Under the pieces are notes generated by a model, which was given only the letters and a program-made list of their open reading frames with translations, searched no databases and was not told the DNA's origin. From an uncultured bacterium (GTDB lineage: Bacteria > Abyssobacteria > SURF-5), in the NCBI GenBank assembly GCA_964607485.1, contig CAZSKP010000033.1, forward strand, positions 21,437-45,769: a stretch of DNA of 24,333 nt. Reading direction: 5' to 3'. Shown here one piece after another: positions 3,680 to 24,333 of the stretch; within the stretch, counting starts at the first letter, position 1, and every line of letters begins with the position of its first letter. The translations under genes and the position numbers were made by a program.

Positions 3680-3685
3680 GATCTC

Positions 3686-7109: not shown

Positions 7110-7133
7110 ATGGCCGATGAGGCGGGTGACGGT

Positions 7134-7162
7134 TTGTTATTGCAGACGAAATGATGTAGAAT
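7134..7162 (+). promoter_or_regulatory. Putative sigma-70 promoter for the LolA-like gene
   Basis: TTGTTA-17 nt-TAGAAT, back-to-back with the minus-strand candidate promoter. Confidence 0.45.
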
Positions 7163-7250
7163 AGTCCGCGCCATTCGCCGATAAGGCGGGAACAAACGGA
7201 CGGAGAGCACCACGTGAACCGGCGGAGAACCCGCCGAGAGGAGGACGGAG

Positions 7251-8030: not shown

Positions 8031-8121
8031 CGCTCTTAAATGTCCCGGGGCGGCAATCGCACTGTCGCGGTAAATCCTTTCGGTCGATTGAGCCCGACGC
8101 CGTCATGCCGGGTGGATTACT

Positions 8122-9312: not shown

Positions 9313-9370
9313 GTTTTCGCACGGAGCGCCGCCTGCGCGGTGCGAGCCGTTTCAATCCCTCCTCCTGCTT

Positions 9371-9398
9371 TTGTTCAGACAACCCGCTGTGGTAGAAT
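9371..9398 (+). promoter_or_regulatory. Putative sigma-70 promoter for the two-component system
   Basis: TTGTTC-16 nt-TAGAAT with TG extended -10, about 45 nt upstream of ATG 9442. Confidence 0.4.
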
Positions 9399-9441
9399 AT
9401 CAAGCGAGGCTCAACAAGCCGGTTTTCAGAAAGAGCGGCCC

Positions 9442-11602
9442 ATGTATCTCAGCCAGTTGATAGAATTTATCGGCCACTTCATGGGGGCGGTACTTCAACT
9501 GATCCTCATCATGATGATGGCCCGCCGCAAGGACAAGCGGCACAGCGAAAAGGTTTTTTTCACGCTCGTTGTCGCCATCTTCATCTGGCACTCGGGCAAT
9601 TTCGTCTCGACGTTCTCCGAGCTTCTGACGGGCGAACGCGTGATAATCGTCGGGCTCATCTGGGACACGGCGGCTACGCTGAGCATGGGCTTCGTGCCCG
9701 CGCTGCTCGTGCACGCGCTGCTCGCGTTTCTCGAGGAATATCCCCCGAACTTCTTCTCCCGCCACCGCCGCATCGTCCTCCTGGCCGCGTACGCCCCTCT
9801 CATCTTCTTCTGGCGCGCTCCGCTGAGGCTGATCCAGCACCCCGAGCTGCCCAGGGCCGAGAACATCCTGCTCGTGACCGAGATGTTTCATTACTGGTCG
9901 ATCGTCGCGCTCGGGGTCGCCTCCTACATGTGTTACAGGCTGTCGAGCCTCACGAAGAATGATGTCGAGCGCCGCTTCTACATGTCGCTCGTGAGGATGT
10001 TCGTCGTCATCTTCGGGCTGCTGGTGTTCACCTACGCGTTCCATGCCAAATACCTGCCCGGCCTGGGGCAGTACTTCCTCATGGCATGCGCGCTCGCGCC
10101 CATGTTCCCGACGATAATCTTCTCATACTTCATACTCCGGTACAACTACATGGAGTACGTGCTGAAGAGGAGCATCTTCTATTCGCTTTTTGCGACGTTC
10201 GTGCTGGCCGTGTACATTCTCGGTATCCGCCGGATGGGCGACTTCCTCGAAAGGGCGCTCAACATCGACTTCAGGATAATCGAGGCGATACTCGTCATCG
10301 GCCTTATCCTCCTGATAGAACCGTTGCGGGAGAGATTTCAGGCGGCGTTCAACACCCTGTTCTTCCGCGAGCAGAGTTACTATCGAAGGGTGTTCGCCGA
10401 GCTGAGCCATCGGCTGGGCTCGCTCCAGGGGATAGAGGTCGGGCGGCTGCTGCGCTACGTCGCCAACAGCGTGCAGGCGGCGATGCGACTGAGCAACTGC
10501 AAGATCGTCCTGCTTCGCCCCGAGGACGGGCGGCTGGTAATCGACGAGACCTCGTCGCCGATGCCCTCGGCGGAAATGGACAACATCATCCGCCATTTTC
10601 AGAACGTCCATGCCCACAGCATCTCGCTGTGGCAGGTGCCCGACCAGGCGCTGGTGCGGGAAATGAAAGCGCTGGAGGCGACGCTCGTGCTGCCGATTTA
10701 TCGCGACGAACATCTGATGGGAATCATGTCGTTGGGGTCGAGCACGCAGTACCGGGAGCTTTACGAAAACGAGATCGAGATGCTGTCGATATTGCTCAAT
10801 CACCTCATCACCGCGATAGACAACACGCGGCTGATATACGACAAGCTCGAGCTGGAGCGCCGCATGCTTGCGAACGAGAAGTGGATGAGTCTCGGACGGC
10901 TCTCCGGCCAGATCGCCCACGAAGTCAAGAATCCGCTCAGTTCCATCAAGGCCATCACTCACGTCATGCGCGAAGAGCTTCCGGCCGAGAGCCCATTCTA
11001 CAAGGACCTGTCCATGGTGGAGAGCGAGATCGACAAACTTTCGGGCGTCGTCAACCAGTTGCTTCAGGTGGCCCGACCGACGACGCACGAAGAGCAGGCC
11101 GTTGACCTGCGCGACGTCGTCGAGAACGTCGCCAGCGTGCTCCGCACCGAGGCGTCCCAGAAGAACATTTTCATAAGCTGTCAATACGACGACGCAATCC
11201 CGATGGTCAAGGCCAATCCGGTCACCCTCCGCGAGATCGTGTTCAACCTGATGCACAACGGCATCCAGTCGATGAGTTCGGGCGGGAGTCTGACGGTTTC
11301 GGTCAAGCATCCTGCGCCCGACGCCGAGAGCGGGCGGCCCTCCGTGCTGATTCTGGTCCGCGACACCGGCCCCGGCATACCCAAGGAGGCCATGGAGAAA
11401 ATATTTGAGCCGTTCTACACGACGAAGGTGGGCGGCACGGGGCTCGGACTGTGGATAGTGCGCGAAAAACTCGCCGAGATGGGGGCGCAAATCAGCGTGG
11501 AAAGCGACCATGGCACCGCCGTCAGGATAGCCATTCCCACCGAGGCTCCATCCGCCGAGGCGCGGCCCGACTCCGCCTCGAATCACAAACAGGAGAAACC
11601 TG

Positions 11603-11610
<8 letters not shown>
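9442..11610 (+). CDS. Multi-TM sensor histidine kinase with GAF-like domain (PrsK-like architecture)
   Basis: Many N-terminal hydrophobic helices and a GAF-like segment (LVLPIYRDEHLMGIMSLG). H-box IAHEVKNPL, N-box VFNLMHNG, G1 DTGPG, F-box IFEPFYTTK, G2 GTGLGL. Start placed at ATG 9442 (MYLSQL). Confidence 0.93.
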
Positions 11611-13003
<1,393 letters not shown>

Positions 13004-13051
13004 GAGAACGGGCGGAGTCGCAACCAAAGAAGAACAAGAAGCGACGCGAAC

Positions 13052-13122
13052 CAGGGATTTCGCGGATTAACACGGATTCTTTTAATGTCAGGAATCTGCA
13101 GATTTCGCTGATTCACGCAGAT
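13052..13122. repeat. Short-period GGAT/CAGAT repeat clusters (REP-like)
   Basis: cagggattt-cgcggattaa-cacggatt and tgcagattt-cgctgattc-acgcagat form two runs of three roughly 9-10 bp units. Confidence 0.55.
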
Positions 13123-13125
13123 ACA

Positions 13126-13158
13126 TTCCCCCTTTGAAAAGGGGGCGAAGGGGGATTT
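13126..13158. repeat. REP-like palindrome CCCCCTTT-GA-AAAGGGGG...AGGGGGATTT
   Basis: Perfect 8-bp inverted repeat at 13128-13145 followed by a second GGGGG arm. Confidence 0.6.
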
Positions 13159-13160
13159 CC

Positions 13161-13182
13161 GTAGCGCAGGCATCCTGCCTGC
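13161..13182 (+). repeat. GTAG-type REP element
   Basis: GTAG tetranucleotide followed by the hairpin gcaggca-tcc-tgcctgc, the layout of GTAG-family REPs. Confidence 0.65.
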
Positions 13183-13293
13183 AAAGCACTGCAACACGAA
13201 GCATCCATAGCGCATACTCGATAAACCGAAGAAAAGGACAAAAACCCGAAAATAGGTGATAGGTAGAGTTGAAATTTGACAAATCCTGTTACT

Positions 13294-13914
13294 ATGGCAA
13301 CACAAATAGCTGAAATAACCACCATTGTGCAGAATATCGTGCTCGCAGCTTGCGGCATGGCCACTGTGTTTATCGCATACTTGGGTCTCACAACCTGGCG
13401 GAAAGAATTGAAGGGCAAATCAGAATACACAAAAGCAAAAGAGGTTCTTAAAGCTGTTTACAAAGTGCGCTCTTCTTTCATGCATGTCCGCAACCCTATC
13501 ATGTACTCATTCGAGTTCCCAGAGGAGATGCGAGGCCCTAGGGGCAACCTTAAGGAGGAACATGATTACGAGGGCAGAGCCCACGCGTACGCGAAGCGCT
13601 GGAAGTTGCTGGCTGATGCTTTTCAAGAGTTGGAGGAACAAAATCTTGAAGCGCAAGTTGAGTGGGGTCCAGAATTCCAGGATGTCATCATCCCACTGAG
13701 AAAGTGTCTGGCAGAATTGCAGATCACCATTGGGGACATGCTCGAAAGAAAGAAGAGCTTGCGTAATCACGAGACCATGTCAGCAGAGGAAAAAGCCAAA
13801 GAGAGGTCCGTGCTTTACTACACTGGCGAAGATTCTAAACATGACGAGTTTACTCAAAAGATCAACGCGGCGATTAAATTGTTTGAGAAGAAGCTCAGAC
13901 CTCATATCAAGTAA
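13294..13914 (+). CDS. Hypothetical protein with N-terminal TM helix
   Basis: Clean ORF in an AT-richer tract, starting at ATG 13294 or TTG 13276. Hydrophobic IVLAACGMATVFIAYLGL is followed by a charged helical domain. No family recognised. Confidence 0.75.
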   Translation: MATQIAEITTIVQNIVLAACGMATVFIAYLGLTTWRKELKGKSEYTKAKEVLKAVYKVRSSFMHVRNPIMYSFEFPEEMRGPRGNLKEEHDYEGRAHAYAKRWKLLADAFQELEEQNLEAQVEWGPEFQDVIIPLRKCLAELQITIGDMLERKKSLRNHETMSAEEKAKERSVLYYTGEDSKHDEFTQKINAAIKLFEKKLRPHIK

Positions 13915-14101
13915 GGGCAATTGAAATTCCACGAATATAATACGAAGGAAGGTAGTGTCTTCAGTTATGTGGTATATATTTGATATGTATCGCAGTCCGA
14001 AACCGATTTCAAGACATCATGATTTAAGACTCCTCTTGCTTCTCCAACCGTTGTTTCCTTGGCCAGCTATTAGCTTAAAGCGTCAAGTTTTACAGTGAGT
14101 C

Positions 14102-14947
14102 ATGGGTAATCACTATATTCCACAGTACTATCTCAGGGGATTTTGTCCCGGATTCGGCCGAACAATTTGGGTCTATGATAAGCAGAAAGCCCGGAAATTC
14201 CAGACGCAGATAAAGAGCATTGCAAACATATGCGGCCTATACCCGCAGGAACTTGAGAAATATCTTGCGGAGGACATTGAGAATCCTGCGAATCAGGTGC
14301 TTGATAAAATCCATGGTCGAGAGCCTCTGACTCCAGGCGACAAGATCACCTTTTCCAATTACATTGCGGTAATGTGGAAGAGAGTTCCAGAAACCAAAAA
14401 TCGCCTGAAGAAAAGTGCCCCTGAAATAATCGCAGGTTTGCGAGAGAAGTTTCACCGAGACTTGGACGAAGCCGTCTCTAAAGGTCTAGCGAATGCGGAC
14501 TTTGCTCAACGCCGAAAGCAGGAAATTGATGAGATTCTTGATCGATTTTCCAACGAACCACCAGCAGACATTTGGCACCAAGTAATTCCAATTGAGCGTT
14601 CGCCTGAAATAACAGCCAGTCTTGCAACAATGACATGGAGATTCATCACATTTGATGAAAAACAGGTTTTCTTGACGGGAGATAATCCCGTTTTCTTTCA
14701 TTCTAACTTGGGAATAGGAAGTCCTGAATCTGAACTATCTTTTCCAATATCAAGTCACGTAACTCTCTGGGCGACTCGCAGAATCGATCTCGCTGAAGGA
14801 TATCTTCCTGGAAGAATGTCTTTCGTCAAGGAGATGAACCGCAGGATAGCAAGCCTTGCTACACGATTTGTCTTTCAGGGAGAGGACGAAGATTGGATTC
14901 TTCCTTTTGTTATGAAGAAGTACAGGAGGCTAAATATTATAAGGTGA
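14102..14947 (+). CDS. DUF4238 domain-containing protein
   Basis: N-terminal NHYIPQYYLRGF, IWVYDK, and C-terminal FLTGDNPV and FPISSHVTL are characteristic DUF4238 motifs. Confidence 0.88.
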   Translation: MGNHYIPQYYLRGFCPGFGRTIWVYDKQKARKFQTQIKSIANICGLYPQELEKYLAEDIENPANQVLDKIHGREPLTPGDKITFSNYIAVMWKRVPETKNRLKKSAPEIIAGLREKFHRDLDEAVSKGLANADFAQRRKQEIDEILDRFSNEPPADIWHQVIPIERSPEITASLATMTWRFITFDEKQVFLTGDNPVFFHSNLGIGSPESELSFPISSHVTLWATRRIDLAEGYLPGRMSFVKEMNRRIASLATRFVFQGEDEDWILPFVMKKYRRLNIIR

Positions 14948-14952
14948 AACCA

Positions 14953-14980
14953 GAAATCTGGGGACAGCGCCCACATTTTC
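14953..14980 (+). repeat. 28-bp imperfect palindromic repeat, copy 1
   Basis: gaaatctggggacagcgcccacattttc, 23/28 identical to the copy at 16208-16235. Confidence 0.7.
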
Positions 14981-15047
14981 GTCGTCATATTTACGAACTC
15001 AAATTACTTTCAAGTTGACCCATCTTTCGGCCGGAGAACACAACGTT

Positions 15048-15485
15048 TTGGTTGATAAATCCGCAATCGGAAAGTCCACTCCCACGTACACGATGGAGGT
15101 GGAGAAGGGACACATACGCCGGTTCGCGCAGGCGCTCGGCGACGACAACCCCCTCTACCACGACGAGAAGTATGCGAAGAAGAGCCGCCACGGCGGCATC
15201 ATCGCGCCGCCCACGTTTCCTACGGTGTTCGGATTCGAGGGAGAGCGCGTGCTCGACGGTCTGGGCATCAACTACGCGCGCCTCCTGCACGGAGGGCAGG
15301 AGTACGAGTATTTCAGGCCCATCAGGGCGGGCGACACGATAAGTTTCAGCACCAAAATCGTCGATGTGACGGAGAAACAGGGCAAGAGCGGAACAATGGA
15401 TATCATCACGACTGAGATGACGGGACTTGATCAGGAGGGTGAAAAGGTGTTCGTCGGCCGGTCCACCGTGGTAATCAGACGATAG
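15048..15485 (+). CDS. MaoC-family dehydratase N-terminal-type (HadA-like) hotdog protein
   Basis: VEKGHIRRFAQALGDDNPLY, IIAPPTF and LLHGGQEYEYFRPIRAGD. Probable TTG start at 15048 with GGAG upstream; the ORF extends to 15015. Confidence 0.9.
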   Translation: MVDKSAIGKSTPTYTMEVEKGHIRRFAQALGDDNPLYHDEKYAKKSRHGGIIAPPTFPTVFGFEGERVLDGLGINYARLLHGGQEYEYFRPIRAGDTISFSTKIVDVTEKQGKSGTMDIITTEMTGLDQEGEKVFVGRSTVVIRR

Positions 15486-15502
15486 GAAGGCGCGCCAAAC
15501 CG

Positions 15503-15931
15503 ATGGCAGAGACGCCCCTGTATTTCGACGACGTGAGCGTGGGCGACGAGATCCCGAGCCTGACGAAGCCGCCCGTCACGGAAGTGCAGCTCGTGAAATA
15601 CGCGGGCGCGTCGGGCGATTTCAACCCAATTCATACCGTCCACCACTATGCGGAAAAGGCGGGCCTCGGCGGCGTGATCGCGCACGGCATGCTGAGCATG
15701 GGATTCGTGGGCGAGCACGTGACCAGATGGATGGGCGAATCGGGAACGCTCAAGCGGCTGAAGGTCCGGTTTGTCGCCATGACGCGTCCCGGCGACGTCG
15801 TCACGCTGAAAGGCAAGGTTACCGAAAAGAGGGAATCCGGCGGCGAGCGCCTCGTCGAATGCGACGTGTGGGCGGAAAAGCAGGACGGAACGAAGACCGT
15901 CACCGGCAGCGCGACCGTCGCCCTGCCCTGA
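15503..15931 (+). CDS. MaoC-family (R)-hydratase/dehydratase (HadB-like catalytic subunit)
   Basis: Hydratase-2 motif YAGASGDFNPIH, IAHGML and VRFVAMTRPGD. RBS AGGAAGG. Confidence 0.92.
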   Translation: MAETPLYFDDVSVGDEIPSLTKPPVTEVQLVKYAGASGDFNPIHTVHHYAEKAGLGGVIAHGMLSMGFVGEHVTRWMGESGTLKRLKVRFVAMTRPGDVVTLKGKVTEKRESGGERLVECDVWAEKQDGTKTVTGSATVALP

Positions 15932-15943
15932 CATCGGAAACCG

Positions 15944-16204
15944 GTGAACAGAGAAACCATCCTCGCTCTTGCGGAGCATTTGAGGCAATCCATCACCTTC
16001 ACCGAAGGCCCACGCGTCGGCCGGCTGCTGCCGCAGTCGTTCCGGAGCGAGGGCTGCGACCACACCCTTACGAAAACCACCGACTGGCTCAAAGCGAACG
16101 GGCACGATGTCAATGCCGCCGTTAGATGGCTCAAGGAACGCGGCGGCGACTGCGACTGCAAGGTGATCACGAACGTCGTCCGCACGCTCGACGCCGAGAG
16201 CTGA
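15944..16204 (+). CDS. DUF2695-like small Cys/His protein
   Basis: GCDHTL...WLK...WLKERGGDCDCKVITNV matches the DUF2695 CDH...GGxCDC pattern. GTG start 12 nt after the MaoC stop. Confidence 0.75.
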   Translation: MNRETILALAEHLRQSITFTEGPRVGRLLPQSFRSEGCDHTLTKTTDWLKANGHDVNAAVRWLKERGGDCDCKVITNVVRTLDAES

Positions 16205-16207
16205 ACG

Positions 16208-16235
16208 GAAATTCGGCGACAGCGCCCATATTCTC
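16208..16235 (+). repeat. 28-bp imperfect palindromic repeat, copy 2
   Basis: gaaattcggcgacagcgcccatattctc, a direct repeat of 14953-14980. Confidence 0.7.
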
Positions 16236-16314
16236 AACCCCTCCATTGAATCCCTAGAAACACTGGCGGACAGTATGGCCAAGATGACATGCTTAGTGAA
16301 GGAGGGATGGAAAT

Positions 16315-16794
16315 ATGGCCAAGGCACATGTTGTGAACGAATTGATTATTGAGCGCTTTTTCGACGCCCCGCGCGAACGCGTGTGGAAGGCCTGGACCGA
16401 TCGGGAAACGTTCAAGAAGTGGTGGGGTCCGAAGGATTTCACCTGTCCGTTTTCCGAGATGGACCTGCGCGTGGGCGGCAAATATCTGCATTGCATGCGT
16501 GGACCGGACGGGAAGGATTATTGGTCAACGGGCACGTACAAAGAAATTGTCCCGATGCAGAAGATAGTCGTTACCGACAGCTTCGCCGACGAAAAAGGCA
16601 AGGTCGTTCCGGCGACTCATTACGGTATGGAGGGTTTTCCGCTGGAATTGGAAGTCACCGTCACTCTTGAAGCCATCGGCGGCAAGACCAAGATGACCTT
16701 GACGCACGTTGGCCTGCCGGAAGGAGAGAGCAAGAAACAGTGTAACGCCGGCTGGAACCAATCGTTCGATAAACTTGCGAAGGTTTTGAAATAA
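16315..16794 (+). CDS. SRPBCC/AHSA1 (START-like) domain protein
   Basis: ERFFDAPRERVWKAWTD...WWGP, DLRVGGKY and GWNQSFDKL. RBS GGAGG. Confidence 0.93.
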   Translation: MAKAHVVNELIIERFFDAPRERVWKAWTDRETFKKWWGPKDFTCPFSEMDLRVGGKYLHCMRGPDGKDYWSTGTYKEIVPMQKIVVTDSFADEKGKVVPATHYGMEGFPLELEVTVTLEAIGGKTKMTLTHVGLPEGESKKQCNAGWNQSFDKLAKVLK

Positions 16795-16828
16795 CGAGAC
16801 GCAGATTTTCGAAAAAAGCTTGTTCTTC

Positions 16829-16950
16829 ACCACAAAGGCACTAAGACACAAAGAAGTCATTGATTCTTTCTCTTCTTGGATCTCTATCTTCGTGTCTTGG
16901 TGTCTTTGTGGTCGATCTAGATTCTTCTGTGTCCTCTGTGACCTCGGTGG
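16829..16950. repeat. REP-like long inverted repeat between convergent genes (possible bidirectional terminator)
   Basis: accacaaaggcactaagacacaaag (16829-16853) pairs with cttcgtgtcttggtgtctttgtggt (16888-16912), 22/25 with two of the differences being G-U wobbles. A related extra arm ctgtgtcctctgtgacctcggtgg ends at 16950. Confidence 0.7.
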
Positions 16951-17008
16951 CAACGATTCTTTTCAGCCGCTGAATACGCGGCTTCGCACGGAGAATTCCA
17001 AGTCTCTT

Positions 17009-18292
17009 TCATTCCGTCCGCTTTTCCTCGGTGAGCATAACCGATACGAGGCGGACGAACCACATAGCGAAGACGAGCATAAGAGTTGATTGGTAGGCGA
17101 TGAGCGGATAGTCGCCGCCCACCTTGTGGAACAGTGCGACGATGTTTCCCATTAATTGGGTGAAGAACGCGCCGCCGAGGAACGTGAAGAAATTGACGAT
17201 GCCCACGGCGACACCGAGTATCTCGAACGAGAACGATTCGCGCACCATCGCATGCGTCAGCACCCCGCCGCCCCAGGCGACACCCATGAGGAAAAGCAGC
17301 GCCGTCGCAAACCCGCGAGGGACCGCGAGCGGGGTGAAGGCGAACGGAAACCACACTATCAGCGCAAGAATGGAGCAGACCACCAGCACACGCTTGCGCG
17401 ATTTGAGCAGGCGGTCGGAAAGCAACCCCCACAGCGGCGCGCCGCAGATGCCCCCGAGCGAGTACCACAGAAGCGCGTTGCCCACCTCGAGCAACGAGTA
17501 CTCGTAGCTCCTGCTCAGGAACGGCCCGGCCCACAGGCTCTGGAATCCCTGCTGCGAGCTGCCGGCTATCATGAAGATGACGAGCATCAGGTAGCTGCGG
17601 TTGTGCATGAGCGTCCACACCGTTCGGAACACGGCGGCAAGCTTCTCGCCCGCGGTTTCGGTGAGCGCCGCATCGGGTGCGTCTCCGTCGGCCCCGGCGG
17701 GAGGGCTTTCCTGTTCGGGCGCATTCGTCACGTAAAAGCCCACGAGTGCGATCAGGCCGACCGTGAGCGCGCCGACGAGCAGGTAGGAATTGCGCCACCC
17801 CATCGCCTCCACCGAAAACGCCAGCGGGCTTGTGGCGAACAGGTTGCCGAGCATGCCGAGCGACATCAGTATTCCCAGCACCGTGCCGAACTCGCTCTCT
17901 TTGAACCATGCGCTCAGTATCTTTATGACCGAGAGGTAGATGCACGATATGCCCACGCCGATGAGCACTCTGCCGAGCATCGCCGTGGCGAATCCCCCTG
18001 CCGCCGCGAACACGACCGAGCCCGCCGTCGAGAGCGCGAGCGACAGGATGATGGTGCGCTTCGGGCCGACGTGGTCGGCGAATACGCCCGAGGGCAGTTG
18101 CATGAACGCGTAGCAGTAGAGCAGTATGCCGCCCAGGAGCCCGAGCGCGGCCGGATCGAGCCGGAACTCTTCGGCAAGCAGGTCGCCGATGACGGCCATC
18201 GTCACCCGGTGAAAGCTGACGAAGCAATACACCAGCGCCAGCGCCGAAAAGAGCAGGAGCCTTCTGTTGAACATGCGGGCCGGAATTCTCAT
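17009..18292 (-). CDS. MFS transporter
   Basis: About 12 hydrophobic segments, motif A-like GVFADHVGPKR and GLLSDRLLKSRKR, plus GRVLIGVG and WFKESEFG. Start is uncertain (ATG 18292 or 18274). Confidence 0.93.
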   Translation of the reverse strand: MRIPARMFNRRLLLFSALALVYCFVSFHRVTMAVIGDLLAEEFRLDPAALGLLGGILLYCYAFMQLPSGVFADHVGPKRTIILSLALSTAGSVVFAAAGGFATAMLGRVLIGVGISCIYLSVIKILSAWFKESEFGTVLGILMSLGMLGNLFATSPLAFSVEAMGWRNSYLLVGALTVGLIALVGFYVTNAPEQESPPAGADGDAPDAALTETAGEKLAAVFRTVWTLMHNRSYLMLVIFMIAGSSQQGFQSLWAGPFLSRSYEYSLLEVGNALLWYSLGGICGAPLWGLLSDRLLKSRKRVLVVCSILALIVWFPFAFTPLAVPRGFATALLFLMGVAWGGGVLTHAMVRESFSFEILGVAVGIVNFFTFLGGAFFTQLMGNIVALFHKVGGDYPLIAYQSTLMLVFAMWFVRLVSVMLTEEKRTE

Positions 18293-18355
18293 AGGTGACC
18301 GAAACAAGGTCGGGAGGGCTTACCATGAATGGCTATGACTCAACGGACAGGAAGC

Positions 18356-18384
18356 ATTATAGGAGAGCCGCCGGGGCAAGTCAA
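18356..18384 (-). promoter_or_regulatory. Sigma-70 promoter for the MFS gene
   Basis: Minus strand reads TTGACT-17 nt-TATAAT. Confidence 0.7.
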
Positions 18385-18427
18385 CCCGCGCGCGGCCTTT
18401 AATGGAATCACATGTTCCTACCGCTGA

Positions 18428-18602
18428 GTCATTCTAAGTGCGGGTGGTTCATCCTGAGCGCAGTCTTGTCATTCTGAGCGTGGCCTGGTCATTCTGAGCG
18501 CAGTCTTGTCATTCTGAGCGCAATCTTGTCATTCTGAGCGCAGCGAAGAATCTCTTATGCAATCAAACCAAACGGAGATGCTTCGCTTCGCTCAGCATGA
18601 CA
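18428..18602. repeat. Tandem 20-bp-period array (6 units of GTCATTCTGAGCG-N7) ending in a 28-bp inverted repeat (REP-like)
   Basis: Units start at 18428, 18448, 18468, 18488, 18508 and 18528. The segment 18527-18554 is 25/28 complementary to 18575-18602. Confidence 0.85.
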
Positions 18603-18660
18603 AGTGGCAAGCTGAGTGCACGAAGCCACAAGAGATGGTGAAATTCGCCGGGCCGTCCGG

Positions 18661-18690
18661 TTGACAGGGACGGCGGAAAAGAGATACCAT
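18661..18690 (+). promoter_or_regulatory. Putative sigma-70 promoter for the glutaredoxin gene
   Basis: TTGACA-18 nt-TACCAT, followed by RBS GGAGG and ATG 18714. Confidence 0.55.
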
Positions 18691-18713
18691 CCGTCAGGGA
18701 GGCTTTCACAGGG

Positions 18714-18974
18714 ATGAAGCACGTAAGAATCTACACGACGTCCACCTGCTACTACTGCGACCGCGCCAAGGCGCTCCTGAGGAAGAAGGGAGTCGAATTC
18801 GAGGAGATCGACGTGGAGACAGACCGCGAGGCCATGAGAGAGGTGATTAAGATCACCGGCCGGCAGACGGTCCCGCAGATATTCATCGACGATTTCCACG
18901 TTGGCGGGTGCGACGACCTCTACGCATACGAAGAGCTGGGCAGGCTCGACTCGCTGCTCGGGCTTGTGGAATGA
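18714..18974 (+). CDS. grxC: Glutaredoxin 3-like dithiol glutaredoxin
   Basis: 86 aa with CYYC active site, TVPQIFI and GGCDDL motifs. Confidence 0.88.
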   Translation: MKHVRIYTTSTCYYCDRAKALLRKKGVEFEEIDVETDREAMREVIKITGRQTVPQIFIDDFHVGGCDDLYAYEELGRLDSLLGLVE

Positions 18975-19014
18975 CGGCCCGGGCATACACTAGGTTATCC
19001 AGGGCGAGGAAATA

Positions 19015-20706
19015 TCAGGGCGGGCTCAGTGCCTTGTGCTGCGGTTGATTCCACCGAAATTGCCCGGGCGACTGCTCCGGGTCGATCCTGACGACGCATA
19101 ACTCGTCCCGGCCCTCCGCATCATTGAAAGTGACGAAATAAGCCTCCCGGTCGATGAACACGACGGGCGTCTTCACGCGGTCGGTGGGAAAGTCTTCGAG
19201 TCGTTTTCCGTCCGCCGCACGGTACGCGACGAGTTTTCTATTATCCGAAGGGACGAAGAGGGCTCCGTCGCTGATGGTCGCGGAGAACCGTGTCGGGCCG
19301 CCGGATTCATCCCTCCATTTCTCCTCGCCGGTCTCGGCGTCGATGGCGAATACCTTGCCCTCGCGAGTGCACACGTAGAGGGTTCCGTCCGCCAGCAGGG
19401 GCGCGGCGAATATGCAGCCGCCCGTGTTCGCCTTCCAGATGAGTCGGCCCCCATCCGCGGCGTCGAGCGCGTACACGTATTGGTCCCATGAGCCCACGTA
19501 CACGCGGTTCGCGTCCACGACCGGCGCCGCCGTTATCTTGTCGCCCGTTGTGAACGTCCATTTTGTCGTGCCGCTCGCCAGGTCATACGCGTACAGCGTC
19601 CCGTCCTCGGCGCCGATGTAGAGCATTCCCTGTGCTGCCGCTGGGGGCGCGAACATCTGTCCGCCGATTGCAAAGGCATGTTCCATCGGCCCGGGCTTCG
19701 CGCCGCCGCCCGGCCTGAACAAGAGGAAACACGCAAGCGCCAGATTGAGCACGACGCTCAAGGCCAGCGCGACCCTCACGCCGGTTGGGGTTTGCAGAAC
19801 GACCCGTTCGCGCACGCGCGGGCCGGGGCGCTCCTTCTCGCGCGCGGCCCGTGGTTGAATCTCGCTGACCGTCGCTCCAATCTCGGTGCGGACGGTCTCG
19901 GGTATCGCCTGGCCGATGGCGTTCATCACGTGGCGGAAGCTGTCGTACCGATGCGCCGGCTGTTTCTCAATCATCTTGGCCACGACGTTTGCCAAATTTC
20001 CCGGGATTTCGGGATTAAGCAGCTTGGGCGATTCGGGAATTCTTGTGCGGTGCATCTGGAGTATCTCGACCGACGTCTCCGCGTCGAACGGGACCCTGCC
20101 CGTCAGCATTTCGTACAGCACGACGCCCAGAGAATAGATGTCGGTCCGCCGGTCCACGGCCACGCCCGAGGCCTGCTCGGGCGACATGTATTCCGGCGTA
20201 CCCATTATCGCGCCCGTCGCGGTCAGCCGGGTCCCTTCATCCATGTGAGCTATGCCGAAATCCATTATCTTGAACGTACCGTTTTCGTCCGCCATGATGT
20301 TGTCGGGCTTCACGTCGCGGTGAACGATACCCCGGGAGTGAGCCAGGTCAAGGGCGTCGGCGATGTTGATGATGATTCGCGCGGCCTCGGCAAAAGGGAT
20401 GCGTCCCCGCTGTTTCAGCAGAGAGCTCAGCGTCGGTCCGCGGAGGTACTCCATCGCAAAGTAATGCATGTCGTCCTGCCGGCCCACTTCGTACACCTTT
20501 ATGATGTTCGGATGCTCGAGCAGCGAGACGGCCTTCGCCTCGCGGCGAAATCGTTCGACGTACCTGACATTCCGTGTCAATTCCGGTGGAAGCACCTTCA
20601 GGGCAACCTCGTCGCCCGTCTCGGTGTCTCGCGCAAGATAGACGACACCCATCCCGCCCTTGCCTAGTTCCCTCAGCAGTTCGTATTTGCCTATCCGCTT
20701 TTCCAA
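19015..20706 (-). CDS. Hanks-type Ser/Thr protein kinase with TM helix and C-terminal PQQ-like (BamB-type) beta-propeller
   Basis: GKGGMG, VALK, HRDVKPDN, DFG, GTPEYMSPEQ and DIYSLG kinase motifs. TM helix VALALSVVLNLALACFLL is followed by repeats such as LYIGAEDGTLYAYDLASGTTKW and VYVGSWDQYVYALDAADGGRLIW. TTG start. Confidence 0.94.
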   Translation of the reverse strand: MEKRIGKYELLRELGKGGMGVVYLARDTETGDEVALKVLPPELTRNVRYVERFRREAKAVSLLEHPNIIKVYEVGRQDDMHYFAMEYLRGPTLSSLLKQRGRIPFAEAARIIINIADALDLAHSRGIVHRDVKPDNIMADENGTFKIMDFGIAHMDEGTRLTATGAIMGTPEYMSPEQASGVAVDRRTDIYSLGVVLYEMLTGRVPFDAETSVEILQMHRTRIPESPKLLNPEIPGNLANVVAKMIEKQPAHRYDSFRHVMNAIGQAIPETVRTEIGATVSEIQPRAAREKERPGPRVRERVVLQTPTGVRVALALSVVLNLALACFLLFRPGGGAKPGPMEHAFAIGGQMFAPPAAAQGMLYIGAEDGTLYAYDLASGTTKWTFTTGDKITAAPVVDANRVYVGSWDQYVYALDAADGGRLIWKANTGGCIFAAPLLADGTLYVCTREGKVFAIDAETGEEKWRDESGGPTRFSATISDGALFVPSDNRKLVAYRAADGKRLEDFPTDRVKTPVVFIDREAYFVTFNDAEGRDELCVVRIDPEQSPGQFRWNQPQHKALSPP

Positions 20707-20727
20707 GTCTTCTTCAACCAGGCGCTT

Positions 20728-20952
20728 TCACTCGGCGGCCGAAAAGTCGAACTGCAATCCGTCATACGGGCACCAGCCTCGCCGCTGGGCCTTTTCCACG
20801 TAGAACATACGTTCGCACGACGGACATTTGACCCATCTGAAGTTGGGACTATCGACACGTGTCTCAGGCACGCTCCCGCGGGTCGAGAGGTCCCACGCGA
20901 CGAGCCCGATCAGCATACCCAGCAGAGCGATGACCAGAATTCTGTGCAACAT
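20728..20952 (-). CDS. Small membrane-anchored protein with zinc-ribbon-like motif
   Basis: 74 aa with an N-terminal hydrophobic helix and VKCPSC-x12-WCPYD. RBS GGAGGGAG. Packed 24 nt and 21 nt from its neighbours on the same strand. Confidence 0.75.
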   Translation of the reverse strand: MLHRILVIALLGMLIGLVAWDLSTRGSVPETRVDSPNFRWVKCPSCERMFYVEKAQRRGWCPYDGLQFDFSAAE

Positions 20953-20976
20953 ATCCCGAAACGCTCCCTCCGAGCC

Positions 20977-23259
20977 TCAGCCTCCTATTTCCTGTCTCAT
21001 CCTCTTCAGCACGCGTTCAAACTTTCTCCGGCCCAGCATCGCCCCCCTGTCGTCTTCCTTGAGCAGGACGATGTCTTTCAGCGTGTGCCTTTCGACGAGG
21101 AAGAACAGCACGTTCTCTCCGATGGAGTCGGGAAAGAAGTAGAACTTGTCGTTGACGTTCTTCCAGTCGAAAACGTATCCCGTGAGTTCCTCCTGGTCGG
21201 CAAAGATCAGCTTGACAAGGTGTCCCGAGCGTGGCACTTTCAGGGAGAGCAGCCTGTCGGTCAGCTCGCCGTCGAAATCGCGTACGAAGGCGACCGCCTT
21301 CAGCTCGTAGAAACGAACGTATGACTCTTTGCGGGAGGGCAGGCCGACTCTGTTCAAGAAGCGGAACCCCTCCGTCTCGATATTCCAGCTCAAGGCCCAG
21401 CCCTGCATGACCTCGCCGGTCAGGAAGTACAGGACCACCTGCCGCAGGGGTCTCGGCTCCTCGTAGTAGAATTCGAAATCACCCAGTTTGATCGAATCAA
21501 GGTGCACCAGTTGGACCCGGCCGGTCCTGGAGACGGAGTTGACGAGCACTTCGTCGGTGTCTTCTCCGGCCTCGACGACCGTCCGCACGCCGCTTTCCGT
21601 CCTAAGGCCGGAGAACCTGTATGCCCTGTCTCTCATCGAACGGTGAGGCAGCTCCACAAGAGCTTCTCTCCCCAGCCCGATCATGACCTCCTTCACTCGA
21701 TTCTTCTCGGAGAGGCGGTCAAGGTTTATGTTTCTGGCAATGCCCCTGGTCGGGTCCCGCAAGACGACCAGCTTTCCGACGGGACGCGTCTTGTGAGCAA
21801 GGTAATCGAGAATATTCTTTCTGACGTTCCCGATGACAAACAGGAGCACAATCGCGGCCAGCGCACAAGCGACCACGATGACGAAGTAGAAGGCGAGGGC
21901 CCTGAAGTCGACGCCTTTCTTCGCGACATCCACCGAAACCGGGATTTCGGAGCGTGTGAATGCCCAGCCCCCGTGTGGAGCGAGCCTGATGGTGCCTTCG
22001 TATTTTCCCTTGGCCCCTTCGGGCAGCGTCTGCTGCCGGGATAGCGCGATGTCGATGACAATCTCCTTTTCCCTCAAGCTCGGCGAAACCTTCAGCTCGA
22101 CGCCTTCGGGAAGCGCGATGTCTGCCACGACCGTTACCGCGTCGAGGCTGCCGGGAAAATCGACTCCACTCGGAGTAATGTAGATGCTTTTCGTCTCCTC
22201 GTATTTCCCCCGAAGGCCGGTCGGGCCGAATGTAATAGGTGACTCCACAAGCACTTGCAACGTCTCCGCGATGGAAAACGCAAAACCGACAGTGCGAGGA
22301 TACAGAAGCATTGTCTGAGGGTCGGTTGGTTGGAAGACGAGGGTGCCGGCGTAGTCGCCCCTTGAGAATCCCCGAGTTTCGAAACCGAACGTCTCGGTCC
22401 ACGCTTGCTGCCGGCAGACGAACCGCCTCGGCCTCACATCGAAGAACTTGTCGAGCGTTCCCTTGGTAAATTCGGCCTCTATGCTGAGCTCGAGCATGGC
22501 CAGGTCTTTCGGAGGACGTCTGGGATAGAAGGCCAACGAGAAGGCGCTCTGTGTGGGCGTGTCGGGTATTTCACCGAGAAACTTTGTCGGGGTCACGATG
22601 TTCACGTCGGCCAGCGTGAGCCGGTCAAGCCATTGTTCATCTCTCCGCCAATTGGCGGTATAAGCTCCAATCGAAAGCAGAAACGCCTGCAAGTCGGCCT
22701 CGAGCCAGTCGCCGAGATAGAAACAATAGAAAGAATAGTCTTCGCCGGCTTTCAGGTCGGAGTATCGTCGCAACAACTCTGCGAGGGTAGTGGCTTCACT
22801 CCGTGTATCGTCGGGGTCACGGCGGCCGTCGGTTATCAACACGAGAGTTCTTTCATTTGCTGGTCGCCTGATGCGGGAATCTTTGATATCCGCAAGAGCC
22901 TGCTGGAGCGCCGGGAAGTAGTTCGTGTATTTGCCCGATGTGTGGAGTTGAAGCAGTTGGGATTTCAGCTGGGCCACGTCGCCGGGCTTTTCGATTTTTC
23001 GCTTTGCAATAATGATGGGGTTGTTCGAAAACTGGTAGCATGTGAACGAGTCGCCCAGTCGCGCTCCGCTCACGAAGCGGCTCATTATTCCGCTGATGGG
23101 ACGAAGATAGGGCGACGCGCTTTCGGAGCAATCGATGAGAAACACGACGTCCTGTGCGGGAGGCTGCTGCGCGAGAGTTTCGGGAGGGAATGCTATCGAA
23201 AATATGAAGGGAAGAACAGCCAGGAGAAGTATAATATGCCTCTTGGTCGGTGTCGGCAT
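20977..23259 (-). CDS. Type-I membrane protein: signal peptide, VWA, putative beta-sandwich repeats, TM, FHA-like domain, DUF6982-like domain
   Basis: MIDAS elements DVVFLIDCSES, GKYTN and LITDG. TM helix FYFVIVVACALAAIVLLFVIG. FHA-like IGLGR...VLVNS...LVHLDSIKLGDFEFYY. The C-terminal VVLYFLTGEVMQG...ELKAVAFVRDFDG...VKLIFADQEELTG resembles DUF6982. Confidence 0.85.
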   Translation of the reverse strand: MPTPTKRHIILLLAVLPFIFSIAFPPETLAQQPPAQDVVFLIDCSESASPYLRPISGIMSRFVSGARLGDSFTCYQFSNNPIIIAKRKIEKPGDVAQLKSQLLQLHTSGKYTNYFPALQQALADIKDSRIRRPANERTLVLITDGRRDPDDTRSEATTLAELLRRYSDLKAGEDYSFYCFYLGDWLEADLQAFLLSIGAYTANWRRDEQWLDRLTLADVNIVTPTKFLGEIPDTPTQSAFSLAFYPRRPPKDLAMLELSIEAEFTKGTLDKFFDVRPRRFVCRQQAWTETFGFETRGFSRGDYAGTLVFQPTDPQTMLLYPRTVGFAFSIAETLQVLVESPITFGPTGLRGKYEETKSIYITPSGVDFPGSLDAVTVVADIALPEGVELKVSPSLREKEIVIDIALSRQQTLPEGAKGKYEGTIRLAPHGGWAFTRSEIPVSVDVAKKGVDFRALAFYFVIVVACALAAIVLLFVIGNVRKNILDYLAHKTRPVGKLVVLRDPTRGIARNINLDRLSEKNRVKEVMIGLGREALVELPHRSMRDRAYRFSGLRTESGVRTVVEAGEDTDEVLVNSVSRTGRVQLVHLDSIKLGDFEFYYEEPRPLRQVVLYFLTGEVMQGWALSWNIETEGFRFLNRVGLPSRKESYVRFYELKAVAFVRDFDGELTDRLLSLKVPRSGHLVKLIFADQEELTGYVFDWKNVNDKFYFFPDSIGENVLFFLVERHTLKDIVLLKEDDRGAMLGRRKFERVLKRMRQEIGG

Positions 23260-23310
23260 CTCACCCGGCCTGATTGTCCACGTGGGCTCGCTTCAAGTTG
23301 GCTACCGCCA

Positions 23311-23339
23311 ATTCTAACACAATGGCGGAATGATGTCAA
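23311..23339 (-). promoter_or_regulatory. Sigma-70 promoter for the VWA-kinase operon
   Basis: Minus strand reads TTGACA-17 nt-TAGAAT with TG extended -10, about 50 nt upstream of ATG 23259. Confidence 0.75.
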
Positions 23340-24102
23340 AAGAATCGCGTGACCCGGGCCTGTGGGGTGACGATCAGGCGAGACGGGTGAAAAAGCTCGA
23401 TGGGAACGTTGCTTGATGAAATTCTTCCGAGCGGCGTTTGTTCGCGTGCGTCGCCCGCGGCAGGGGGCGTTGCGGCTGGGGCGCCCATCCCGGGCGCCCG
23501 ACCAGACTTCATCCAAGACGACCAGTCGCGAAGGCGCTCCAGGCGGCGCTCCCCATGTCGGCCGTTTCCACCTCTTAGGGCGCCGAGCCGAAAATTCGCC
23601 AGGCGTTTGCCCATAAGTTAAACTGGTGCGATTACTACACCGTCGTGCAACATCTGGCTCGCAGGGCTGGCTGGCGTGCCCAATGGAGTGAGGAGTCCAG
23701 CCGCTCCCTTGCCGAACGTTCAATACGGAGGCCTCGCAGAAGAATGGGCGGAAAAAAAGGTTCAGCATGTGCGAACCGTACCCGTTGATTCACGGGTGCG
23801 CTCAGGAGTTCCGACAATATCTAAGTTATTCATTTTACCCGACTTCAATGTGGTCGGTCTAATGGCCCGTGAAGAATTCGACAGAAAAACTGAGAGGCGC
23901 CTCCGGAATGGAATGTGGAGGCAGGAGAGGTGGGTCGGCCCGGGACCCGGAGAGCTTTCCCATGCCGTATTCTTGCGTCGGCGGGAGAAAAATTATGGGA
24001 GCCCGCGCCGACACAGACCCCGCCCGATTTCTCCCCGCGTTTGAGTCGGTTCTCGCTCATGACCGGTTTTGGAAGGGGAAGGTCGGGGGTTAAAAAAAAG
24101 AC

Positions 24103-24131
24103 TTGACAAAAAAAAAGGCCTGTGGTATTAT
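24103..24131 (+). promoter_or_regulatory. Sigma-70 promoter P1 (tandem pair)
   Basis: TTGACA-17 nt-TATTAT with TG extension and an upstream A-tract (UP-element-like). Confidence 0.8.
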
Positions 24132-24169
24132 CACGTTCGTTCCTACCGAAAGAGGGAGAAAGGCGCGTA

Positions 24170-24198
24170 TTGACAAGCGGGGGGATGGGTGGTATAAT
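24170..24198 (+). promoter_or_regulatory. Sigma-70 promoter P2 (tandem pair)
   Basis: Perfect consensus TTGACA-17 nt-TATAAT with TG extension. Confidence 0.85.
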
Positions 24199-24333
24199 AA
24201 CAATACCTATCAGATATTCAGTCCTGTCTTTCACCAAACAAACTTCTCACAGGTAATCTAAAAATCTTCAAAAGCAAGGGGGGATGATTCAGCCGAGTAT
24301 CTCATGTTGTTGCGTCTCTGTGCGCAGGCAATG

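Follow-up and report, generated by a model that had tools for sequence, protein, structure and literature searches.

In Sulfolobus acidocaldarius, the ArnA/ArnB/ArnC system combines a vWA domain, a Zn ribbon, an FHA domain and a Hanks kinase, as described in excerpts of two papers (PMC12852372; PMC6509490), the second of which names the phosphate-contacting Arg, Ser and Thr residues of the FHA domain. The Zn ribbon of ArnA docks on ArnB, which consists of a vWA domain and a beta-sandwich, and FHA binding is switched by ArnC phosphorylation (PMC12852372, excerpts). The PpkA/Fha1 pathway of the Pseudomonas aeruginosa H1-T6SS places a periplasmic vWA domain in a Hanks-kinase/FHA pathway (PMC3224232 and PMC13713981, excerpts). 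The periplasmic domain of PpkA is termed vWA in the excerpt of PMC3224232, and according to that of PMC13713981, which draws on a model and loop-deletion data, TagQ and TagR engage this domain, whereby the kinase is activated towards Fha1. The TerY-P triad, composed of a vWA protein, a PP2C and a Ser/Thr kinase fused to a zinc ribbon, has been proposed to be a metal-sensing phospho-switch (excerpts of PMC11090510, which cites Anantharaman et al. 2012). Finally, the DRA0331-DRA0334 operon of Deinococcus radiodurans encodes a vWA protein, a transmembrane Ser/Thr kinase and an FHA protein, as described in part of a preprint (bioRxiv 10.64898/2026.01.23.701218).

The locus analysed here lies in a window (the whole stretch of DNA studied) of 24,333 nucleotides and comprises three genes, referred to as A, B and C, and a promoter-like site:

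23311-23339 (-): sigma-70-type promoter-like site, a consensus match only, about 50 nt upstream of the A start
20977-23259 (-): gene A, 760 aa, predicted single-pass receptor (AF2 model with pLDDT 85.2)
20728-20952 (-): gene B, 74 aa, TM helix and ribbon
19015-20706 (-): gene C, 563 aa, TTG start, receptor-type Hanks Ser/Thr kinase

As the first-pass annotation had stated, and as the open reading frames and hydrophobic segments bear out, the three genes are co-oriented, separated by gaps of 24 nt (A-B) and 21 nt (B-C), and all contain membrane segments. They are conserved at 50-85% identity in relatives and therefore represent real genes rather than a chance pattern. The sigma-70 site noted ahead of A is present as a near-consensus match (TTGACA-17-TAGAAT with an extended -10 TG, 11 of 12 consensus positions), which makes it promoter-like on the basis of the consensus only; the region contains 8 such sites as opposed to 1.6 +/- 1.0 in shuffled sequences. 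Rfam at the gathering threshold gave no match over the window, including the ORF-poor stretch of about 1 kb upstream of A.

The trio resembles ArnA/ArnB/ArnC-ArnD (PDB 8S05, 5A8I, 5A8J) in that a MIDAS-bearing vWA domain, a small Cys ribbon, an FHA fold and a Hanks-type kinase are encoded together, and the A domains align with their counterparts, the vWA domain with ArnB (8s05_B; VIA Z 18.1, rmsd 2.6, 165 residues aligned) and the FHA fold with that of ArnA (Z 11.7, rmsd 3.8, 107 aligned). However, ArnA and ArnB are cytoplasmic, whereas the vWA protein A has a predicted signal peptide, and ArnA carries ribbon and FHA on one chain with the vWA on another, whereas the trio has vWA and FHA on one transmembrane chain and a separate ribbon; neither the cytoplasmic vWA protein nor the ribbon-FHA chain of an ArnA/ArnB-type phospho-switch is found in it. 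ArnB ends in a helical domain with pThr sites, A instead has beta domains and a TM helix; the ArnA FHA keeps Arg132, Ser146 and Thr167, whereas that of A is without the Arg, and the B ribbon is of the type Cys3-Asp as opposed to Cys4 in the Arn ribbon.

With PpkA/Fha1/PppA and TagQRST, as far as the excerpts describe them, the trio shares a membrane-spanning Hanks-kinase pathway, an extracytoplasmic vWA domain and an FHA-domain partner, and switching of the kinase through contacts of its periplasmic domain, described for PpkA, is proposed here likewise. In PpkA, however, the vWA domain belongs to the kinase, whereas in the trio it is part of the FHA protein, and the kinase has a PQQ-type propeller instead; Fha1, unlike A, is soluble and reads pThr in the canonical way, and the Pfam scan of the window revealed no T6SS-related families and no TagQRST. 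TerY-P likewise encodes a vWA domain, a Ser/Thr kinase and a zinc ribbon as a unit, but it includes a PP2C and a kinase fused C-terminally to the ribbon, whereas C ends in the propeller, the ribbon of the trio is a separate membrane protein, and its vWA domain is exported and fused to FHA-DUF6982; nor is the trio linked to genes of restriction or defence. The Pfam scan of the 23 ORFs of the window found neither a PP2C nor any other Ser/Thr phosphatase, and the scanned flanks of relatives contained no PP2C. The DRA0331-DRA0334 operon differs from the trio by a separate canonical FHA protein and a KI-FHA-PP2C phosphatase, and the available part of the preprint reports neither a ribbon protein nor a vWA-TM-FHA fusion.

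The combination had been annotated as undescribed. This does not apply to the domain set, which is known from Arn, TerY-P and PpkA/Fha1, but it holds for the wiring, since the literature search yielded no paper on this particular arrangement and none naming DUF6982. New in the trio are the export of the vWA domain on the FHA protein, the ribbon as a separate gene and the absence of PP2C. Most likely, the three proteins work as one envelope-sensing unit, in which known kinase/FHA/vWA switches have been re-wired for the membrane, and not as a wholly new kind of system. With a probability of about 0.55, A, B and C form one lineage-specific, inner-membrane-spanning signalling unit wired as proposed below, for which we infer the complex, its topology, the direction of signalling and the cue.

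Domains and predicted topology of A, B and C

The features of A, in order from its N-terminus, are as follows:

23164-23259 (-): predicted Sec-type signal peptide (residues 1-32), with a basic n-region, a core at 8-26 and a conserved P-x-x-A-x-A-Q
22645-23154 (-): vWA domain (36-205), intact MIDAS D43-x-S45-x-S47, T112 and D144, predicted periplasmic
21925-22617 (-): all-beta ectodomain (215-445), two sandwich-like domains in the model
21829-21891 (-): transmembrane helix (457-477), followed by the basic stretch NVRKN..HKTR
21457-21780 (-): FHA fold (494-601) without the canonical Arg and His, G528-L529 and S541-M-R-D-R-A546-Y
21058-21441 (-): DUF6982 (607-734), beta-rich
20986-21051 (-): C-terminal helix (737-758), following DUF6982

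A has two hydrophobic segments, 8-26, after which comes a conserved AxA, and 459-477. The domain content given for A at first pass was confirmed by Pfam, with VWA (PF00092) at 37-158 (E 1.3e-9, 39 bits against a cut-off of 23.8) and DUF6982 at 607-732 (E 2.1e-9), and the intact MIDAS by residue conservation: among 24 orthologues, D43, S45, T112 and D144 never vary and the conservation of S47 is at least 90%; the former four are invariant in 21 distant relatives as well. In the VIA comparison, the A vWA aligned best with ITIH1 (Z 19.3, rmsd 2.7, 178 aligned), which corresponds to a Rossmann-like vWA fold, and 4fx5 (Z 18.2) was a further match. An ArnB-like three-domain arrangement of the ectodomain was considered, but its support ends with the vWA domain itself (model 32-221). 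In architecture, A resembles ANTXR2/CMG2, which likewise has a signal peptide, a MIDAS vWA, an Ig-like beta domain, a single TM helix and a cytoplasmic tail. The likeness is limited to domain order because residues 32-330 align with the vWA and Ig domains of ANTXR2 (255 residues, Z 15.1) only at an rmsd of 8.4; moreover, ANTXR2 is eukaryotic, its tail is unrelated to that of A and it has no kinase partner gene.

The canonical pThr pocket of FHA domains includes an Arg after a conserved Gly together with the Ser and His of an S-x-x-H loop. It had been suggested that the FHA-like tail of A reads pThr written by the kinase, of which the fold stands and the reading becomes questionable. The model of the tail (pLDDT 90.8) confirms at 494-601 the FHA fold, which is defined as an 11-stranded beta-sandwich: Foldseek gave a TM score of 0.80 to the KIF1C FHA (2g1l), and VIA a Z of 12.5 (6i2q_B and 2g1l_A, rmsd 2.1-2.5, 93-99 aligned) and 45 chains with Z >= 8, essentially all of them FHA. 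Pfam FHA (PF00498) does not match A at E <= 0.1; it matches 37 of the 43 distant relatives scanned and four of the six paralogues in the same genome, and these paralogues and relatives keep the His. The residue after the invariant Gly528 is not Arg in any of the 24 A orthologues (Leu529 here), and the position of the canonical His is occupied by Ala, Thr, Val or Ile. An hhalign comparison with a canonical FHA of the same genome pairs G-L with G-R and R-D-R-A with A-R-V-H, at a probability of only 23%; two residues upstream, S541 is invariant and could still take the place of the FHA Ser. Because both Arg and His are absent, canonical pThr reading by A is doubtful and a simple writer-reader link with C is unlikely.

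For DUF6982, both fold searches with the A-tail model returned essentially FHA matches, a protein atlas search found solely DUF6982 clusters with scores of at most 0.85, and the tail matched PDB sequences at chance level at best (E >= 0.78). An hhalign comparison with a PilZ protein of the same genome gave a probability of 0.4%.

B and C contain the following features:

20884-20940 (-): B, N-terminal TM helix (residues 5-23)
20755-20835 (-): B, ribbon C43-P-S-C46...C61-P-Y-D64 (40-66)
19882-20685 (-): C, kinase domain (8-275), catalytic residues intact
19717-19773 (-): C, transmembrane helix (312-330), a hydrophobic segment
19018-19689 (-): C, PQQ/BamB-type beta-propeller repeats (340-563), about 224 aa only, predicted periplasmic

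The description of C as a Hanks kinase with a beta-propeller agrees with its Pfam matches, Pkinase at 8-255 (E 4e-57) and PQQ_2/PQQ/Beta-prop_ACSF4 at 360-508, and with the catalytic residues: K37, E56, H129-R130-D131, N136, D149-F150-G151 and the activation-loop residues T162 and T164 are invariant in 23 C sequences. In B, residues C43, S45, C46, C61, P62, Y63, D64 and G65 are invariant in 31 sequences, all of which have three Cys and Asp64 in the ribbon instead of the four Cys ligands that two CxxC knuckles provide in a Cys4 zinc ribbon; ribbon matches in Pfam and NCBIfam were below their cut-offs. B is probably a membrane-anchored accessory subunit. The Lys and Arg residues flanking its TM helix, one on the N side and two on the C side, leave the topology ambiguous; the ribbon probably lies in the periplasm, as predicted from a paralogue with the order TM-ribbon-ribbon-TM-FHA. 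The placement of the vWA domain and the propeller outside and of the FHA-like tail and the kinase inside, already proposed in the first-pass annotation, is predicted from the signal peptide and the TM segments together with domain logic, and is supported to that extent.

This topology invites comparison with the integrin-like head of the first-pass annotation, in which the vWA domain of A would dock via its MIDAS on the propeller of C and the contact would gate the kinase. Both domains are predicted to be periplasmic, their genes always occur together, the MIDAS is intact, and there is a precedent in PpkA and TagQ/TagR, where the binding of a partner ectodomain to a vWA ectodomain activates a Hanks kinase (PMC13713981, excerpts). 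However, the propeller is of the PQQ/BamB type rather than the FG-GAP type, the A vWA is no closer to integrin I-domains (Z about 15) than to ITIH1, ArnB and alpha2delta (Z 17-19), and such a head ignores B, which is conserved as much as A and C, so that we regard it as unlikely.

Conservation, paralogues and gene neighbourhood

The source is an uncultured sediment bacterium; the trio is confined to one family and the 74-aa ribbon protein B is found only there, and the source names of the relatives are mostly Candidatus Abyssobacteria. The sequencing runs listed for it include four DNA runs from a single sediment study, of which one may be the source, and no RNA run. The order A-B-C is kept in 9/9 other genomes of the family and in 5/5 close metagenome loci, which supports co-conservation of the three genes. 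B occurs in 10 of the 11 genomes of the phylum examined, namely in all 10 of the family, and always between A and C; among 5.8 billion proteins it forms 32 clusters, all of 65-76 aa and at least 59% identical. The families are of matching size: A has 27 clusters, B has 32, and close C-type kinase-propellers number about 24. All synteny evidence comes from this one family of one small phylum, where the locus is at the same place in all genomes, and since the conserved block also contains unrelated genes, a glutaredoxin gene (L001, L003, L048) and an MFS transporter gene (L003, L048), the shared order is partly plain inheritance.

A belongs to a family of vWA-FHA-DUF6982 receptors with seven members in the source genome (A and six paralogues), which the first-pass annotation did not include. 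Two paralogues on contig C20 are flanked by receptor kinases, one of which bears an FGE-type domain like that of TagR. Four of the six have no kinase within about 8 kb, and the short flanks of distant relatives (L025-L034) contain neither B nor C; the receptor family therefore needs no adjacent kinase. The TM-ribbon-ribbon-TM-FHA protein mentioned above, of about 300 aa, is encoded on contig C19 of the source genome and by no fewer than 8 of the 9 other genomes of the family. The B profile recognises its ribbons (E 4e-17), its FHA bears the A-type motif, and it has a weak Pfam TerY_C match (E 7.6e-4, below the cut-off). This fusion suggests a common pathway for ribbon and FHA, and the TM helix between them would place the ribbon across the membrane from the FHA.

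These data also bear on a reading without joint function, according to which C would be an ordinary PQQ-propeller kinase, A an orphan-type vWA receptor and B a small membrane protein, neighbours merely by descent. This would fit the common kinase-TM-PQQ architecture (910 matches), the paralogues of A, most of which are without kinase neighbours, and the unrelated genes in a block known from a single family. We nevertheless consider it quite unlikely, since the genes are separated by only 21-24 nt behind a single upstream promoter-like site, B has been found solely alongside A and C, A-B-C holds together across relatives in which the genes upstream of A vary, and the fusion paralogue ties B-type to A-type modules.

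In the relatives, an alkaline phosphatase (PF00245, E 1e-83 to 1e-88) follows C in 9/9 other family genomes and in 2/2 metagenome loci that reach that far. It has lipobox-like N-termini, which point to a lipoprotein, and the active-site stretch TDSAAAAT; this fourth conserved gene of the relatives was missing from the first-pass annotation. No homologue was found at E <= 1e-5 in the source genome, which is 97.5% complete and, judged from its sequence, has lost the phosphatase. A-B-C could accordingly sense the status of phosphate esters, phosphate or Zn/Mg and control or mature the phosphatase, the trio of the source genome being a remnant. The MIDAS sites of vWA domains bind divalent metals and the ribbon could bind Zn, which together with the constant adjacency would suit such a role. 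It is improbable all the same, because in the source genome the phosphatase is gone, yet A, B and C are intact and none of their conserved residues is lost. Moreover, the adjacency may be inherited order, as the phosphatase is in turn followed by the glutaredoxin gene in three relatives (L001, L003, L048) and by the MFS gene in two of these (L003, L048), and in L052 and L054 C and the phosphatase frame are as much as about 130-170 nt apart, far enough for the phosphatase to have its own promoter.

That the trio is an anti-phage or conflict system like TerY-P is very improbable: TerY-P-like vWA/kinase/phosphatase modules do act in defence (PMC11090510, excerpts) and the kinase domain of C scores with the PADLOC models PD-T4-6 and mad6, but these matches cover only the generic catalytic domain, A and B are without any PADLOC family, PP2C, nuclease and mobile-element genes were not found in the Pfam scan of the window, the position of the locus is fixed within the family and the vWA domain is exported.

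Proposed working and biological meaning

If A, B and C work as one inner-membrane-spanning unit, A would expose a metal-dependent vWA head and beta domains in the periplasm and an FHA-DUF6982 tail in the cytoplasm, and C would be a receptor kinase with its PQQ-type propeller in the periplasm and an active kinase domain in the cytoplasm. A periplasmic cue would alter the contacts among the ectodomains (vWA MIDAS, ribbon and propeller), whereupon C would be activated by autophosphorylation of its activation loop and would then act on the A tail, or be held by it. The Arg-less FHA would serve for docking by other means than the canonical pThr pocket, and DUF6982 would act as output or adaptor. 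Since the lipoprotein alkaline phosphatase follows C in all relatives, the cue may be related to phosphate esters or divalent metals. Co-prediction of the A ectodomain (31-452), the C propeller (332-563) and the A tail with B (22-74) gave ipSAE values of 0.00 and 0.00, in a run without controls and with the vWA-propeller pair unscored, so that these values count neither for nor against binding. A more specific version, which we put forward as a speculative and on balance unlikely one, is that the trio is a periplasm-facing counterpart of the ArnA/ArnB core, in which the exported vWA head with its beta domains, the membrane-anchored Cys3-Asp ribbon and the propeller would come together as a single extracytoplasmic sensor of phosphate-ester or divalent-metal status. 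It would signal via the Hanks kinase to an FHA that no longer binds pThr and to DUF6982, a way of sensing envelope or phosphate independently of PhoR/PhoB and ancestrally tied to the alkaline phosphatase.

Modules of Hanks kinases, FHA and vWA domains recur in bacteria and archaea, but only few, such as ArnAB and PpkA/Fha1, have been worked out, and this locus spreads the same parts across the membrane in a new way. It also introduces a family of single-pass receptors, unstudied so far, that combine an exported vWA domain with an FHA-DUF6982 tail; this genome has seven of them, and further candidate phyla contain relatives. Should A, B and C indeed make up one sensor, DUF6982 would gain a defined set of partners, an FHA fold would be seen to work without its phosphate pocket, and Ser/Thr signalling might be connected with the status of phosphatase or metals in the periplasm.

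Gene layout and conservation

The genes A (vWA receptor), B (74-aa ribbon membrane protein) and C (Hanks kinase with a propeller) are separated by gaps of 24 and 21 nt.

20977-23259, minus strand: gene A, 760-aa ORF, ATG start
20728-20952, minus strand: gene B, 74-aa ORF, ATG start
19015-20706, minus strand: gene C, 563-aa ORF, TTG start
23339-23311, minus strand: promoter-like site, 11 of 12 positions matching: TTGACA-17-TAGAAT, its -10 extended by TG; lies upstream of A at a distance of about 50 nt

All checkable details of the trio in the first-pass annotation proved correct. The site is a putative promoter by consensus match, which does not in itself prove activity; across 18500-24333, eight such sites were found as opposed to 1.6 ± 1.0 expected from shuffles. 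Upstream of A, the remaining 1.07 kb or so (23260-24333) holds no ORF with a Pfam match and no Rfam match. Two further near-perfect sites on the plus strand, 24103-24131 (11/12) and 24170-24198 (12/12, with TG), are directed out of the window and, since the window ends with the contig, any genes that they may drive are absent from the assembly here. Elsewhere in the window, the GC content falls to 44-46% at 13000-15000, compared with about 60% in the remainder; this stretch, possibly an acquired islet, contains a 212-aa ORF without a Pfam match and a DUF4238 protein (14102-14947). The adjacent, overlapping genes of a histidine kinase (756 aa) and a sigma-54-dependent response regulator (466 aa) at 9340-13003 look like an ordinary two-component system.

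Among 11 species genomes of the phylum, B was present in 10, which are all members of the family of the source genome (source genome included), and absent from the sole genome of a second family (96% complete), where at least five tail-bearing paralogues occur with a best match of just 243 bits. The trio is co-conserved, with the order A-B-C kept in 9/9 other genomes of the family and in 5/5 close metagenome loci. Consecutive NCBI locus tags on Candidatus Abyssubacteria/Abyssobacteria records, a class placed by NCBI within Candidatus Hydrogenedentota, agree with this order; one relative bears a Poribacteria label. Neither B nor C was found in ten distant loci (26-37% identity over the matching part, most of A being matched in four), whose flanks are mostly short. 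As the conserved block also includes genes without an obvious link, shared order within one family is no more than moderate evidence for joint function. Mere inheritance of the order is opposed by the genes upstream of A, which vary among relatives (deacetylase, MBOAT, amidase), by the tiny gaps, by the occurrence of B nowhere else and by a fusion that joins B-type and A-type modules, described below.

A co-oriented fourth gene after C encodes an alkaline phosphatase (PF00245) in 9/9 other genomes of the family and in 2/2 metagenome loci that reach it, with lipoprotein-like N-termini and an active-site TDSAAAAT stretch.

L001 4883-6448, L002 6638-8143, L003 10533-11984, also L048-L054 (loci of relatives): alkaline phosphatase directly after the kinase

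The whole source-genome assembly (97.5% complete) contains no homologue of it. Here C is directly followed by a glutaredoxin gene, convergent on the plus strand at 40 nt. In L003 and L048 the phosphatase is followed by glutaredoxin and an MFS transporter, and in L001 by glutaredoxin, an order which indicates that the phosphatase was lost in the lineage of the source genome.

Architecture of the three proteins

Protein A matches the Pfam families VWA (37-158) and DUF6982 (607-732). The MIDAS residues D43, S45, T112 and D144 do not vary across 24 aligned orthologues, and S47 hardly does. The N-terminus resembles a Sec signal peptide: it begins with basic residues, has a hydrophobic core (8-26) and includes a conserved P-x-x-A-x-A-Q. 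Basic residues also follow a second hydrophobic helix (459-477). In the AlphaFold2 model (pLDDT 85.2), the vWA domain and then an all-beta region (215-445) come before the TM helix; after it lie a beta domain (494-601), DUF6982 and, last, a long helix at the C-terminus. The best structural alignments of the vWA domain were to ITIH1 (Z 19.3), a Catenulispora vWA protein (18.2) and ArnB (18.1), the last restricted to residues 32-221 of A.

The tail of A had been read as FHA-like, FHA domains being readers of pThr written by Hanks kinases. The fold was confirmed: folded alone (pLDDT 90.8), the tail adopts an FHA fold, with a Foldseek TM score of 0.80 to the KIF1C FHA domain and VIA Z scores of 12.5 (GarA-type and KIF1C), 12.2 (EmbR) and 11.7 (ArnA), 45 chains having Z ≥ 8; Pfam FHA gave no match to A at E ≤ 0.1. 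The arginine of the FHA Gly-Arg is essential for phosphate recognition. In A, the invariant Gly528 is followed by Leu, and none of the 24 orthologues has Arg there; they also carry S-M-x-D-[KR]-x-Y where paralogues have S-V-x-x-x-H-[AC]. In an hhalign comparison with a canonical FHA of the source genome, which is of low probability and agrees with the alignments, G-L falls opposite G-R, and R-D-R-A opposite A-R-V-H. This orthologue group thus has a degenerate FHA that has lost the Arg, and it is doubtful that A reads pThr in the canonical way. According to PMC6509490, ArnA and Rad53 recognise phosphate through Arg, Ser and Thr residues; Ser541, invariant in the A orthologues, could contribute to such recognition.

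Gene B is real: its protein is represented by 32 clusters among 5.8 billion proteins, all of 65-76 aa and with identities of 59% or more. Residues I15, G16, W20, R25, R32, S35, W40, C43, S45, C46, F50, Y51, G59, C61, P62, Y63, D64, G65 and F70 are invariant, a pattern which makes the ribbon CxxC...CxxD and not Cys4; no curated ribbon model scored above its cut-off. A match to the B profile was found on another contig of the source genome.

L035 (G000:C19), 3782-4615, plus strand: TM-ribbon-ribbon-TM-FHA fusion, 277 aa

Its order is TM, a ribbon CPSC...CPYC, a second ribbon, TM and an A-type FHA, and it occurs in at least 8/9 other genomes of the family. Nearby lie a PilZ protein (5113-5592) and a response-regulator-HD-GYP-type gene (1118-2113, minus strand). 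If the FHA of the fusion is cytoplasmic, the ribbons between its two TM helices are periplasmic and, by homology, that of B probably is too. Charge counting in B is ambiguous on topology, and we put a periplasmic ribbon at about two in three.

Protein C matches Pkinase (E = 4e-57), and 23 sequences show no variation at K37, E56, HRD129-131, N136, DFG149-151 or at T162/T164 of the activation loop. A TM helix (312-330) lies between the kinase and about 224 aa of PQQ/BamB-type repeats. The propeller part gave 910 matches, kinase-TM-PQQ proteins being common, and about 24 close full-length matches share 46-90% identity with C. The source genome encodes about 25 Hanks kinases, with this propeller on C only.

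The wider receptor family

A search with the A tail, made without a profile, retrieved 80 proteins from 1.84 billion representatives, 43 of which, the longer ones being chosen, were scanned with Pfam. FHA precedes or replaces DUF6982 in 37/43; 21/43 have an N-terminal vWA domain, several with a FecR domain, and 3/43 show a PilZ-DUF6982 layout. These layouts make A a member of a wider vWA-TM-FHA-DUF6982 receptor family. In the 1279-aa relative P0037, the place of vWA before the same FHA-DUF6982 tail is taken by a PA domain with an M28 peptidase, and other relatives have PilZ before DUF6982. The tail is thus a portable module with interchangeable heads.

The source genome has nine DUF6982 ORFs, seven with the vWA ... 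FHA/DUF6982 layout. Besides A, only a tandem receptor pair on contig C20 is surrounded by kinases.

L014 (G000:C20:48000-67900), 2012-18680, all genes co-oriented: Ser/Thr signalling supercluster, with
kinase-FGE-lectin-TPR protein, 1415 aa
two tandem vWA-(FecR)-FHA-DUF6982 receptors, 883 and 887 aa
CHASE2-cyclase-kinase, 964 aa
kinase-Clp_N protein, 446 aa
FHA-GAF-cyclase, 534 aa

Around the four remaining vWA-FHA-DUF6982 paralogues, no kinase lies closer than about 8 kb; members of the receptor family can therefore occur on their own, A-B-C being one specialised use of the family. The FGE-type domain of the C20 kinase resembles TagR, whose FGE domain was modelled as binding the periplasmic domain of PpkA (PMC13713981), a domain called vWA in PMC3224232. 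By analogy, this likeness would indirectly support contacts between kinase and vWA ectodomains.

Comparison with known systems

The combination had been considered undescribed. ArnA/ArnB/ArnC of Sulfolobus contain the same four modules as the trio, the Zn ribbon of ArnA docking on the beta-sandwich and C-terminal domain of ArnB and the ArnA FHA binding phosphorylated ArnB (PMC12852372, PMC6509490). Other known systems are the TerY-P triad of vWA, PP2C and kinase-Zn ribbon (PMC11090510), Deinococcus DRA0331-0334 with vWA, TM kinase, FHA and PP2C (bioRxiv 10.64898/2026.01.23.701218), and PpkA, whose vWA is extracytoplasmic and whose substrate is Fha1 (PMC3224232, PMC13713981). The trio is set apart from all of them by the exported vWA of A, linked through the membrane to an FHA lacking the Arg, by a ribbon that forms a membrane protein of its own with a putative Asp ligand, by the propeller on kinase C and by the lack of PP2C. 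In the main-text literature searched on vWA, FHA and Hanks-kinase proteins of the membrane and periplasm, this wiring was not found described, and no paper on DUF6982 was found; the novelty thus holds for the wiring and not for the set of modules.

The earlier interpretation stands in part: the genes and their order (9/9) were upheld, and canonical FHA reading was weakened (Arg 0/24), the FHA of A being probably non-canonical. The integrin analogy, in which vWA-propeller contact outside would control signalling inside, is kept as a sub-hypothesis. The most likely reading of the trio (about 55%) is one Ser/Thr signalling unit that spans the envelope and wires a known kind of system in a new way; it was tied ancestrally to a periplasmic alkaline phosphatase.
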